A DNA stretch of 64,000 bases from an uncultured Rikenellaceae bacterium (GCA_964638955.1 CAZWZQ010000006.1:2400-66399), one strand, 5' to 3'. Counted from the first letter of the stretch, positions 1,964-6,169 are shown. The notes: a model not told the origin generated them from the sequence alone. A program made the numbers and translations.

Positions 1964-2875
1964 TTATTTATTTATGTACCCTACAATTTCACTGATATCA
2001 GAAAAACTCTTTCTTTCAAGATACTGTTCAATTCCCTCAAGAATCTTCACTGAAGCCCTGGGATCAATAAAAGAGGCTGTTCCCACCTGTATGGCTGAGG
2101 CACCGGCAAGGAAGAATTCAATAGCATCATCGGCATTCATGATACCGCCTATTCCTATCACCGGGATTTTAACGGCCCTGGCAACCTGCCAGACCATCCT
2201 GAGGGCAACCGGCTTAACAGCAGGACCCGATAATCCGCCGGTAACTGTTGAAATCGATGGTTTCATTTCACTGGCATCGACTGCCATACCCAGGAGCGTG
2301 TTGATAAGGGAAACAGAGTCGGCTCCCTCCTCCTCCGCAATACGGGCAAATTCGACAATATCTGTAACATTCGGGGTGAGCTTAACTATAAGCTTCTTCG
2401 AATATACAGCTCTGACAGCCTTTGTTACACTGCGTGTTGATGCCGGATCTGTCCCAAAGGTCATGCCGCCTTTTTGCACATTGGGACATGATATATTGAG
2501 CTCAATGGCAGGTATTTTGCTCAGCGAGTTAATCCTTTCAGCAAGAGCAACATAGTCTTTAATATAGCTGCCGTTGATATTTACAATTACATTCGTCTTA
2601 TATTTCGAAATACGCGGATAAATCTGTTTTTCAAAAATTTCAATACCCTTGTTCTGCAAGCCAACGGAATTAAGCATTCCTGAAGGGGTTTCAGCCATTC
2701 TGGGCGAAGGATTTCCTTCCCTGGGCTCAAGGGTTGTACCTTTCACAATAATGCCTCCTAAGCGTGAAATATCAATAAAATCGTCAAATTCAGATCCATA
2801 GCCAAAGGTTCCCGAGGCTGTAAGAACCGGATTCTTAAAGTGCAGATCCCCTATATTGAAGCCAAGTTTTACCAT
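1964..2875 (-). CDS. pyrD: Dihydroorotate dehydrogenase, class 1B catalytic subunit
   Basis: 303 aa. Motifs: [22 protein letters not shown] (active-site Cys), [16 protein letters not shown]. It overlaps the upstream pyrK by 7 nt. Confidence 0.95.
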
Positions 2876-3636
2876 ATCAGATCTTTAATATTGAAAACCG
2901 GACCATCGGTACAGGTGCATAGGTTGCCGTTCAGAGTTGAAACGATACAGCACAGACAGGCTCCAATGCCACACCCCATAAGTGTTTCCAATGATACTTC
3001 GCAGTCAATGTCATTCTGCCTGCAATACTCCCCTACTGCCTTCATCATTACCTCAGGACCGCAGCAATAGACCCTGTCATAATTCTGCTCCGATAGTATT
3101 GTATGCTCACTGACAAAACCCTTTTCTCCACGTGATCCATCCTCGGTGGTCAGGAACACTCTTCCCACCTTCATATACTCATCATATTCAATAATACGTT
3201 CACTGTTCCGGAAACCCAGTAATATGTCAGGATGGTGACCGTTTTCATCAAGATATTTACCCATAAATAATAATGGTGCCACACCGCAGCCGCCGCCAAC
3301 CAGAAGTATTCTCTGATTGCTCTCAGGCAGGCTGAATGAATTTCCCAGGGGGTATATGATATTAAGCATATCGCCCTTCTCAAGCTTAGAAAGTGCCTCA
3401 GTCCCTTTTCCGGCTATCTGAATAAGGAACTTCAGAGTATTTTCTCCGTAATTGACGTCATGTATAGAGAAGGGCCTGCGTAAGAAGGTCTCCGGACTCC
3501 CCTTCACTTTTATCTCGGCAAACTGTCCGGGTCGCATCTCAGGTAACTTTTCCTTACACCACAGTTCAAGAATAAAGGAGTCCTTGTTAAGCTTTTGATT
3601 ATTAATTATTTTTAGAGATTCGATGCGTTTACCCAT
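2869..3636 (-). CDS. pyrK: Dihydroorotate dehydrogenase electron-transfer subunit (FAD/2Fe-2S)
   Basis: 255 aa. It has an RRPFSI FAD-binding motif, a [15 protein letters not shown] fold, and a C-terminal cluster CGIGACLCC...C. It is translationally coupled to pyrD. Confidence 0.9.
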
Positions 3637-3762
3637 CTCCTGATGTTTACCGTAAAGATAATTTTATTAGCGAATATCATAAAATTATACAGATATAATT
3701 CATCTGAATCAGAGATATGTACACCTCTGAATCTTTCAAACACATACCTCCCCGACTATAGA

Positions 3763-4191
3763 TCAATCTTTTCCCGGCAGGTATTCATGAAAACTGTTAT
3801 CCGCATAGAACCATACTATTTTTTCAACTTTTTGCTTTTCATCCCTTACCTTATCTCCTGTATTTCTGAGATTCACATCACTAATCTTTTTTTTGGATTC
3901 TTCAACAGGCTGATTTACAACATTATCTGTACTTTTTTCGCTTTCTTTAATATCTTCAAACAGTTTCTGCATCAATTCATCTTTATACATGTTTCCCCTG
4001 CCGAAAAGAAGCCATTCAGTTGATAAAAAAGGGTATTTTTCTAGCATCTTCAACACAAAATCAAGACTGGGCTTGTTTCTACCCGATAATATATGGGATA
4101 TACCTGATGGCTGAACACCTATTTCTTCTGCTAATTGTGCAGAAGTCTTATTTTCTGCTTTTAAAAATTCTATTAATCGTTCTTTCATCAT
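3763..4191 (-). CDS. XRE-family helix-turn-helix transcriptional regulator
   Basis: HTH: KTSAQLAEEIGVQPSGISHILSGRNKPSLDFVLKMLEKYP. I prefer the ATG at 4191 (MMKERLIEF...) over the track start at 4227, whose extra 12 aa look non-native. Confidence 0.8.
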   Translation of the reverse strand: MMKERLIEFLKAENKTSAQLAEEIGVQPSGISHILSGRNKPSLDFVLKMLEKYPFLSTEWLLFGRGNMYKDELMQKLFEDIKESEKSTDNVVNQPVEESKKKISDVNLRNTGDKVRDEKQKVEKIVWFYADNSFHEYLPGKD

Positions 4192-4220
4192 ATAATAATT
4201 TAATTTTAATGGTATGATGG

Positions 4221-4306
4221 AACCCACATGTAGCTGATTATTATAATATGGTGTTTAGCTTCGCTGAGCTCGCAAGCTCGGTTGTGTATGTAAATACATG
4301 TGGGTT
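4221..4306. repeat. 12-bp inverted repeat AACCCACATGTA ... TACATGTGGGTT with an internal GAGCTCGCAAGCTC hairpin
   Basis: The arms are at 4221-4232 and 4295-4306 and are exact reverse complements. The left arm lies about 30 bp upstream of the preferred XRE start. Confidence 0.5.
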
Positions 4307-4325
4307 TCATAGAAATAATTTGTTT

Positions 4326-4732
4326 TCACAAATGTAAACCTTTAATTCGTTACACATGTAATTCTTTACCATTACATGTGTAAACATTGGCTTAATTACT
4401 CGGACTGGTAATATAATACTAAGTTTTAACAGCCTGATATTCAGTGCCTTAAAAGTGTAAATATTTCATGTTTTACTGGCGTTTAGACTTGTTATATTCT
4501 GGTATACAATCTATTATGGTCTGTTTCTAAAGATTTTACAGTAATAACTTCATTTTTAGCTCTTTATTCTTATAGTCTGATGCAAAATAATATATATAAT
4601 CATACTGATTTATAATATATTATAAAATTATAAATTTTTATTAAATATAAATTACATCTGTAACATTAATATGTACTATTTATTGATTACATCTGTAAAT
4701 AATGAACTATTTAAGGCTATTTACAAATGTAA
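4326..4732. promoter_or_regulatory. Array of six 12-bp palindromic sites TTACA-N2-TGTAA (candidate operator array)
   Basis: Sites: 4326-4337 TCACAAATGTAA (1 mismatch), 4350-4361 TTACACATGTAA, 4372-4383 TTACATGTGTAA, 4652-4663 TTACATCTGTAA, 4687-4698 TTACATCTGTAA, 4721-4732 TTACAAATGTAA. They form two triplets about 280 bp apart inside a 690-bp ORF-free AT-rich gap. Confidence 0.6.
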
Positions 4733-4933
4733 ATCCGAGCCATTATTGTAATTTTGTTAGGGTTAACTTATATTAATACATTAACTTCGTCAGGATTAAT
4801 TTTTCAGAACTCGTCCTCCACTCTCTATTGAAATATTCAATTCTCACTGAATATATGAAAAAGAAAAAAATCTCCGGTTTGAGAGGAATTATCATATAGT
4901 TTATTTTTCTTTAGAAAATAATTGAATCTTTCA

Positions 4934-6169
4934 ATGGTGAAGAAAAAATTTTCGATTGCTCTGCATTACCAGATCCTTATAATGCTGATTGCCGGAGGTT
5001 TCTTTGGTTTTTATTTCCCCTCAGCCACTTCCTATACCAACTGGATGGGAGAAATATTTCTCAGAGGCCTTAATATGATAATAATCCCGTTGATCCTTTG
5101 CTCCATAACCACAGGTGTTGCAAGTGTCGGCAGCAGCGGCAACCTGGGCAGACTTGGCTTTAAAACGCTGGGTTATTATGTTTTTTCAACATTTGCAGCA
5201 ATTGTAACCGGATTTGTTTTTGTCTCGATACTGAAGCCGGGAGTAGGTGCAGAACTCGGATTTCAGGCGCCTGTGGAAGAAATTGCTGCTGCCACGGACA
5301 ACTTCGGCAGGACACTTATAAAGATAGTCCCCACTAATATTTTCGAGGCAATGGTCCAGGGACAAATGCTTTCGATCATATTCTTTGCCATACTTTTCGG
5401 GTATTTTATAACCCGGGTCAGTGAGAAATCGAGTCAAATGCTTACTGGTTTCATTAATTCTGCCCTTGAGGTTATAATGAAATTAACCCTGTTTGTGATA
5501 AAATTCACACCAATAGGTATTTTCAGCATCACTGCAAAGGTAATTGCGCAGCAGGTGGAAATGGGAAACAATATCAGCGAAGTTATAAGCCGCCTGGGAA
5601 TCTATTTCATCGTTGTGATGCTTGGATTACTGGTTCATGCCTTTGTTACTCTTCCTTTATCGGTAAGAATCCTGGGAAAAGCCAATCCGCTGAAACACTT
5701 CAGAAATATGGCAACTCCGCTGCTCACTGCCTTTTCAACCTCATCATCGAACGCAACACTTCCTCTTACCATGGAAGCTGTGGAAGAAAAAGACGGTGTT
5801 TCCAATAAAATAGCAAGCTTTACCCTGCCGCTGGGCGCTACCATCAATATGAACGGAACGGCATTGTATGAGTGTGTGGCTGTGATGTTTATCGCCCAGG
5901 CATACGGAGTTGATCTCACTATCGGACAACAGCTGGTGATGATCTTTACTGCACTTCTTGCTGCAATAGGGGCTGCAGGCATTCCCATGGCCGGCCTGGT
6001 AATGATGGCTGTGGTTCTGAATGCTGTCGGCCTTCCTCTTGAGGGCATAGGACTGATCCTTGCCGTTGACCGTATTCTTGACATGTTCAGAACGGCAGTA
6101 AACGTATATGGAGACTCCTGCTGTGCAGTTATTGTTGCAAAATCGGAAGGCGAAAATTTAAGTATTTAA
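4934..6169 (+). CDS. Dicarboxylate/amino acid:cation symporter (DAACS/GltP family)
   Basis: About 411 aa and polytopic. Motifs: FSTSSSNATLPLT and GATINMNGTALYE, which are typical of glutamate/aspartate or serine/threonine sodium symporters. I prefer the ATG at 4934 over the TTG at 4922. Confidence 0.9.
   Translation: MVKKKFSIALHYQILIMLIAGGFFGFYFPSATSYTNWMGEIFLRGLNMIIIPLILCSITTGVASVGSSGNLGRLGFKTLGYYVFSTFAAIVTGFVFVSILKPGVGAELGFQAPVEEIAAATDNFGRTLIKIVPTNIFEAMVQGQMLSIIFFAILFGYFITRVSEKSSQMLTGFINSALEVIMKLTLFVIKFTPIGIFSITAKVIAQQVEMGNNISEVISRLGIYFIVVMLGLLVHAFVTLPLSVRILGKANPLKHFRNMATPLLTAFSTSSSNATLPLTMEAVEEKDGVSNKIASFTLPLGATINMNGTALYECVAVMFIAQAYGVDLTIGQQLVMIFTALLAAIGAAGIPMAGLVMMAVVLNAVGLPLEGIGLILAVDRILDMFRTAVNVYGDSCCAVIVAKSEGENLSI

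Follow-up and report, generated by a model that had tools for sequence, protein, structure and literature searches.

An array of TTACA-N2-TGTAA palindromes lies upstream of a gene encoding a regulator of the XRE family. Judged by sequence comparison, the array is real, deeply conserved, and of the operator type, and its palindromes are very probably the operators of the adjacent XRE protein itself, serving mainly autorepression, with the more distant of two triplets as an auxiliary set. The array was noticed in a window of 64,000 nucleotides, by which I mean the whole stretch of DNA that was analyzed (C6:2400-66399, from an assembly of 3.1 Mb with 40% G+C).

A pattern search finds seven sites between positions 4326 and 4732. 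Five are perfect (TTACANNTGTAA, starting at 4350, 4372, 4652, 4687, and 4721) and two have one mismatch, those starting at 4326 (TCACAAATGTAA) and 4449 (TTAAAAGTGTAA). The first-pass annotation listed six palindromes; all of its starts were found again, and the one-mismatch copy at 4449 is additional to that list. The spacings it gave hold as well, measured from start to start: 24 and 22 bp within the first triplet, 35 and 34 bp within the second. The distance from the third site to the fourth is 280 bp, and from the end of the sixth site to the ATG of the neighboring transporter gene (4934) it is 201 bp. As claimed, no ORF of 60 aa or more is present. The longest within 4228-4933 is a frame of 40 aa (4773-4895, minus strand), the only one of at least that length. 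The spacer had also been called unusually long. Its length is as read, but 123 bp of it (4189-4311) is a repeat inserted at the start codon of the XRE gene, to which I return at the end.

Chance is not a serious contender for the origin of the array. In 5000 dinucleotide-preserving shuffles of 4228-4933, perfect sites appeared with a mean of 0.004 and a maximum of 1, against the 5 observed, and sites with at most one mismatch appeared with a mean of 0.13, against the 7 observed. The whole 3.1-Mb genome contains 12 perfect copies, about what is expected from composition, and 5 of the 12 are in the array. The seven outside it comprise five inside long ORFs and two lone intergenic copies. Elsewhere in the genome no two TACAnnTGTA cores come as close together as 150 bp. 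The array is thus the only cluster of the motif in the 3.1 Mb, which answers the question of locus specificity that the annotation had itself raised. Table 1 collects the features of the region.

Table 1. Features of the intergenic region and of the genes that flank it (window coordinates)
Feature	Position	Strand	Remarks
XRE-family (HTH_3) regulator gene	3763..4191	-	141-142 aa; Pfam PF01381
MITE-like repeat	4183..4311	-	123-bp insert 4189-4311 bounded by TTTCAT
Operator site 1	4326..4337		TCACAAATGTAA, one mismatch; holds predicted -7 box of XRE gene on - strand
Operator site 2	4350..4361		TTACACATGTAA; overlaps expected -33 region of XRE promoter
Operator site 3	4372..4383		TTACATGTGTAA; with site 2 forms a perfect 13-N8-13 inverted repeat
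Extra one-mismatch copy between triplets	4449..4460		TTAAAAGTGTAA; weakly conserved
Conserved non-palindromic block between clusters	4478..4506		GTTTAGA ... CTGGTATA; 62 aligned loci
Conserved block about 36 bp before site 4	4603..4616		TACTGATTTATAAT
Operator site 4	4652..4663		TTACATCTGTAA
Operator site 5	4687..4698		TTACATCTGTAA
Operator site 6	4721..4732		TTACAAATGTAA; - strand 4731->4724 reads TACATTTG
Candidate rightward -7 box	4749..4756	+	TAATTTTG, 17 nt after site 6
Conserved promoter-proximal block upstream of transporter	4875..4915	+	GGAATTATC ... TTTTTCTTTA; without operator site
DAACS sodium:dicarboxylate symporter family transporter	4934..6169	+	411 aa; Pfam PF00375, E 3.3e-129

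Then there is the evidence from related genomes. The ortholog set consists of 80 loci from Bacteroidales MAGs that encode relatives of the transporter, at 73-96% identity. About 70 of the 80 keep the order pyrD-pyrK-XRE and, divergently, transporter, orf198, and SDR. The array itself stands at fixed offsets from the transporter ATG in some 60 of the orthologous loci of Bacteroidales, approximately -610, -586, and -563 for one triplet and -282, -247, and -213 for the other (one subgroup has distal offsets of -297 and -251). The sites therefore recur at orthologous loci, the second test that had been suggested for them, and with their locus specificity this supports the operator-type reading. 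For 62 loci the start of the XRE gene was parsed and the sites were counted. Their upstream regions of XRE (800 bp each, 49.6 kb together) hold 180 perfect sites, as compared to 4 in the other 359 kb, an enrichment of 326-fold, to be read with the caution that the loci are mutually related and the counts are not independent events, a point that also weighs against any model drawn from them, including mine. In most of the 62 the first site lies 13-29 bp from the XRE ATG. Two non-palindromic blocks between the clusters (4478-4506 and 4603-4616) have column identities of 70-99% over the 62 aligned loci. A flavobacteria-like locus (L088) has a counterpart of the second, ATACTGTTTATAAT (a TACTG(A)TTTATAAT-type string), in the corresponding position.

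The array could belong to the transporter gene or to the regulator gene, and the two can be told apart by loci in which only one of them is present. Six loci have a homologue of the transporter and no XRE neighbor (L020, L056, L057, L061, L064, and L065), and they contain zero sites. A sample of the phylum, 301 genomes, has homologues of XRE in 36, nearly all of the same class. In 20 distant loci of that class the XRE proteins are 32-41% identical, and each of these loci has at least one site with no more than one mismatch upstream of XRE. Most have several, in two clusters. The DAACS transporter is absent from all 20, the divergent neighbor being instead a gene for an M14 peptidase-like protein, DUF418/YeiB, or rlmD; it is only in the Bacteroidales clade of the window that the transporter occupies this place. 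It follows that the array travels with the XRE gene and not with the transporter. The connection to the DAACS transporter drawn in the first-pass annotation is thus not borne out. Its other suggestion, that the adjacent XRE protein binds the array, fares much better: the array stays with the XRE gene even where the neighbors are different, which makes that protein by far the best candidate.

What kind of protein is this? The gene is single-copy (a single tblastn match in the genome), and its product belongs to the HTH_3 family (PF01381, residues 8-61, with 38.8 bits where the cut-off is 23). The protein collection holds more than 5000 homologues, all under generic names such as 'helix-turn-helix transcriptional regulator'. 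An AlphaFold model built on 58 sequences predicts a five-helix HTH of the Cro/CI type (residues 1-66, pLDDT above 90), a disordered linker (82-115), and a C-terminal beta-hairpin (124-136) with the conserved motif KIVWFYxDxSFxEY. Where the palindrome is kept, the HTH hardly varies or does not vary at all, and this includes a predicted helix at 27-35 (…IGVQxSxISHILSGRNKPSLDF…). In a check of covariation between recognition helix and operator, the divergent XRE proteins of L087 and L102 went with degenerate sites in which the TACAnnTGTA core persists. The nearest solved structure by sequence is 3bs3, an HTH protein of Bacteroides from structural genomics, and the nearest folds are 434 Cro (TM 0.80 on target, rmsd 1.8 A), the N-terminal domain of SinR (3qq6, 1b0n), P22 c2, and P2 C. 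A search of Pfam finds nothing in the protein beyond the HTH, in particular no Peptidase_S24/LexA-like or CI-type C-terminal domain. One feature counts against a Cro-type dimer at these sites: a 12-bp palindrome with 2 bp between its half-sites is short for such a protein.

A second consideration against XRE as the binder is that its supposed operator has been seen elsewhere. TACANNTGTA is the published operator core of CopY/CopR and of BlaI/MecI, which are winged-helix repressors (PMC7253601, PMC1935004). An alternative view is that a dimeric regulator from some other locus, a winged-helix repressor of the BlaI/CopY family or perhaps the nearby Lrp/AsnC protein, binds the array, with the XRE gene as no more than a target. 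Besides the shared 10-bp core TACAnnTGTA (PMC7253601, PMC1935004), there are three genes of the CopY/BlaI family (PF03965) in the genome. A gene of the AsnC type lies within about 2.5 kb of the array here (the order to the left, on the minus strand, is XRE, pyrK, pyrD, and then the Lrp/AsnC gene) and in 15 of the 20 distant loci. It is hard to reconcile this idea with the rest of the evidence. The three BlaI-like genes, all on other contigs, carry palindromes of the type ACTA..TAGT upstream and no TACAnnTGTA, so BlaI/CopY proteins were rejected as binders and the array was not assigned to their class. The region upstream of the AsnC gene in the window lacks a site of at most one mismatch. A separate regulator would be expected to have a second cluster in its own autoregulatory region, and none exists in this genome or in four complete genomes. 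Finally, whatever the other neighbors are, the array always abuts the start codon of XRE, and in every locus examined it is linked to an HTH_3 gene, not to one of PF03965. Binding by a different regulator is in my judgment very unlikely. For reference, the three BlaI-family genes are at C54:17524-17862, C1:100027-100365, and C66:8494-8823 (L001-L003).

The position of the first triplet is telling. Promoters of the Bacteroidetes, as used by the primary sigma factor of the phylum, have a -7 box, TAnnTTTG, and a -33 element, TTTG. Site 1 read on the minus strand from 4336 to 4329 is TACATTTG (TAcaTTTG), an exact -7 box for the XRE gene, and from this match a promoter of XRE is predicted at site 1. 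The operator thus overlaps the predicted core promoter of the gene it adjoins. A large majority of the 62 aligned loci have AA at the center of site 1, and the centers of the other sites vary, as predicted for a site that doubles as a promoter element. Predicted promoter and operator together show the classical layout of autorepression.

If one site resembles a -7 box, might all of them be nothing but clustered promoter elements, or might the region be structural A+T-rich DNA, a small RNA, or a structured leader? Every site contains TAcannTG, that is, 4 of the 6 fixed bases of the -7 box, and all of them if the center is TT. The region is also 74% A+T. The outer bases of the palindrome (T at position 1, AA at positions 11-12) are nevertheless conserved in a symmetric fashion that a -7 box has no need for, and the centers vary freely at most sites. 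An RNA reading must contend with the fact that a 5-bp stem with a 2-nt loop is impossible in RNA. The scan of 4100-5000 against Rfam 15 gave nothing near a gathering score, the best match (22 bits against 60, E 1.9-4) being noise, and RNAalifold found 0 conserved pairs in the leader over 42 loci. The small RNA or long leader that the annotation had allowed for finds no support in these results, and I consider it scarcely credible that any of these non-operator readings is correct. Sequestration of the transporter's start codon by a structured leader, a possibility raised by inverted repeat I2, was dropped on the same RNAalifold result.

I propose that the single-copy XRE protein, through its Cro/CI-type HTH, binds each TTACA-N2-TGTAA site, most likely as a dimer. 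The proximal triplet (4326-4383) would cover the promoter of the XRE gene, site 1 coinciding with the -7 box and site 2 with the -33 region, and its occupancy would block RNA polymerase, so that the gene is subject to autorepression. An auxiliary set of operators is the most likely role of the distal triplet (4652-4732), which lies 280 bp off. It would raise the local concentration of repressor or loop to the proximal triplet for repression, a contact that the conserved C-terminal beta-hairpin of the protein perhaps makes. Looping is plausible in view of the conserved distance of about 280-310 bp between the triplets. The distal triplet may also overlap a local promoter that points rightward, which in the clade of the window could be that of the DAACS transporter.

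How the distal sites lie to a rightward promoter differs between groups. Flavobacteria-like loci have TAC(A/T)TTTG, in the rightward direction, at the last distal site, about 25-30 nt ahead of the ATG of the neighbor, and by this reading the distal cluster clearly overlaps the predicted promoter of the M14 peptidase-like gene. In the window's own clade the distal sites carry -7 boxes in either direction or none, and the lack of a consistent box in one direction speaks against this part of the model. The candidate box at 4749-4756 (TAATTTTG) fits the consensus perfectly but is not conserved in position among relatives. If it were used, site 6 would cover the -33 region and about 170 nt of leader would precede the coding part of the transporter mRNA. 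In this clade some 150 nt separate the second triplet from the conserved promoter-proximal block of the transporter that follows it, and control of the transporter by the distal triplet is therefore no more than possible. That proximal block (4875-4915, -60 to -20) and another conserved block at 4828-4845 (AAATATTCAATTCT, about -105 from the transporter ATG) match neither TAnnTTTG nor the operator. They may be the real promoter of the transporter or the site of another factor. As to the identity of the transporter, it scores under the cut-offs of all three NCBIfam models GltP, DctA, and SstT.

On the other side, XRE, pyrK, and pyrD lie on one strand (window 1964-4191, minus) in an order that is kept in five Bacteroidales families, and no terminator-like hairpin was found between XRE and pyrK. 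Co-transcription is conceivable on both accounts, and the genes for the class 1B dihydroorotate dehydrogenase, pyrK-pyrD, might be expressed and controlled along with the regulator. Beyond these neighbors no targets come to light. In four complete genomes the motif is genome-wide as frequent as a control pattern, and the only cluster is at the XRE locus; in the present genome the other seven perfect sites are mostly in ORFs. A genome-wide regulon was therefore rejected. A regulator whose only detectable targets are beside its own gene leaves the physiological output unexplained, and this too must be held against the model.

Among the closest known systems are the immunity regions of lambdoid phages, in which tripartite operators, OR and OL, bind repressor cooperatively and are joined in a loop, the two clusters being 2.3 kb apart. 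The XRE locus recalls those of lambda, 434, and P22 in the HTH_3 fold, in the two sets of three palindromic operators, in the overlap of operators with the repressor's own promoter (here a predicted one), and in a second set distant enough to loop. The spacing within lambda OR is comparable to the 22-24 bp of the proximal set. The differences are also considerable. The operators are of 12 bp with a 2-bp center, the clusters are 0.28 kb apart rather than 2.3 kb, and the XRE protein has a disordered linker and a 13-residue beta-hairpin in place of the CI-type/S24 C-terminal domain. No Cro partner and no prophage context are seen: the gene is single-copy, chromosomal, and syntenic across an order. 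With pyrD-pyrK-XRE synteny shared by about 70 loci, and with a divergent gene that encodes a transporter or has another housekeeping role, the locus does not belong to the lambda CI type.

SinR of Bacillus subtilis, which joins an XRE HTH to a small multimerization domain and acts at multiple sites with looping, offers another comparison. The likeness lies in the N-terminal HTH_3 fold, in a small C-terminal element that could join dimers, and in the presence of several sites per control region. Against it, the sequences are not similar beyond the HTH, the site is different, no SinI-like gene is nearby, and there is no regulon beyond the protein's own locus. A further comparison is with the XRE antitoxins (HigA, MqsA) and with RstR of CTXphi, which are small HTH_3 proteins too and repress their own promoters by way of short palindromes. 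The XRE protein gives weak profile matches to two of them and falls outside both families (29.2 bits against 80 for RstR, NF041951; 19.4 against 47.7 for HigA, TIGR02607), and its locus has no adjacent toxin gene, pyrK and pyrD being downstream.

A search of the literature with the motif, with the sequences of site 1, and for binding motifs of Bacteroides XRE proteins found no relevant paper. The kind of mechanism proposed is well known; the family, the operator, and the 3+3 layout are in no paper that this search found. If the proposal is right, a generically named, single-copy regulator of many Bacteroidia, among them gut and environmental relatives of the Bacteroidales and flavobacteria-like organisms, gains a precise operator, TTACA-N2-TGTAA. 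It gains also a conserved 3+3 geometry and a predicted promoter, and so becomes directly testable by standard experiments. If in addition the clusters loop, the locus would amount to a compact counterpart, on a chromosome, of the OL-OR switch of lambda, and this in a phylum in which the control of transcription is poorly mapped.

The missing regulon invites a wholly different view, that the XRE protein on its array makes up a nucleoprotein complex of the terminus region which acts in cis, be it a fork barrier, an anchor, or a source of immunity against small dif-integrating phages with the same operators, and that autoregulation is a side effect. The position of the gene speaks for it. The best dif-like sequence in this genome is a 28-mer, AAAGCCTATAATTAATATTATGTCAAAT, at the very end of contig C26 (C26:37-64), whose 21 fixed bases are found in at least 119 contigs, almost all from Bacteroidota, with one copy in each. 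Where both are on one contig, the start of XRE lies 16-64 kb from the dif-like site in 11 genomes of the window's clade, and in four genomes of other families the distances from the XRE locus are 7, 11, 21, and 93 kb. The linkage is real in this sample of 15 genomes. It could be explained by inherited synteny, and that takes away from its force. A further point in favor is the weak similarity noted above to RstR (29 bits against a cut-off of 80 in NCBIfam), the repressor of a dif-integrating phage, CTXphi.

The rest of the evidence is unfavorable. XRE and dif are tens of kb apart, and XRE does not always face dif in the same orientation. There are no operator arrays in the 119 dif-containing loci (894 kb). 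Perfectly symmetric sites would give a fork barrier no polarity. Fifteen viral contigs have paired sites, a number near chance, and 0 of the 15 encode a homologue of XRE. I regard a complex of this kind as unlikely. In its boldest form, XRE and the 3+3 array would be a terminus-linked module of Bacteroidia and not a conventional regulator, either a domesticated repressor that confers phage immunity or a DNA-bridging marker of dif. Were this true, it would account at a stroke for the missing regulon and for the persistence of XRE within 7-93 kb of dif in 15 genomes of several families, and I hold it to be equally doubtful. Autorepression by the XRE protein remains the reading I prefer, and the linkage to the terminus, like the repeat described below, is a lead separate from the operator array.

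Several observations were made along the way. In the present genome the XRE array and the dif-like site are on different contigs (C6 and C26), no end k-mers are shared by which C26 and C6 might be joined, and GC skew at the scale of the contig gives no indication of the position of the terminus. Contigs end within about 200 bp of the dif-like site in this assembly and in several MAGs (e.g. L131, L134, L153, and L154), which would fit variable inserts at dif. One sequence deposited as viral, L266 (MT836585.1, 8720-14653; GenBank 'UNVERIFIED: Bacteriophage sp.', from human feces), encodes a full-length homologue of XRE with the C-terminal motif and has both operator clusters. It is probably bacterial (host) DNA in a virome data set. 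With this sequence looking like host DNA and none of the 15 viral contigs encoding XRE, carriage of the system by phages was rejected.

The repeat at the XRE start codon (4183-4311) is present in the genome in six near-identical and three diverged copies. It is bounded by TTTCAT at 4183-4188 and at 4306-4311, so that the insert of 123 bp falls exactly at the start codon, and it consists of inverted arms (4217-4232 and 4295-4310) around an inner G+C hairpin. The empty site can be seen in the orthologous loci L032, L005, and L006, in which 12-20 bp separate the XRE start codon (…TTTCAT on the plus strand) from site 1. The insert is present in the window and in L004. The insertion adds 123 bp to the distance at which the proximal operators and the predicted XRE promoter stand from the gene in most relatives.

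Insertion of the element regenerates an ATG(ATG)AAA start for XRE (ATGATGAAA), and the old ATG (4311-4309, minus strand), as read by hand, opens an upstream ORF of 33 codons, whose stop lies 14 nt before the new ATGATG. For the RNA of the element, folding gives a long hairpin (-28.3 kcal/mol, z -3.2), in which the new start codon is part of a 7-bp stem. An ORF starts at the terminal ATG of the element in 8 of the 9 copies here and in 16 of 21 evaluable copies in related MAGs. The other copies, at C25:22138, C10:51053, C24:6828, C29:567, C20:50759, C10:31412, C23:30314, and C4:33701 (and L238-L265), are almost always exactly at the start codon (ATGAAA) of unrelated genes. I take the hairpin-rich ends and the fixed flanking hexamer to recall elements derived from IS200/IS605. 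Upstream of the BlaI-family gene on C1 there is a hairpin element with ends ATGATGGAACC…GGTTCCAT that resembles the arms of this repeat (4217-4310).
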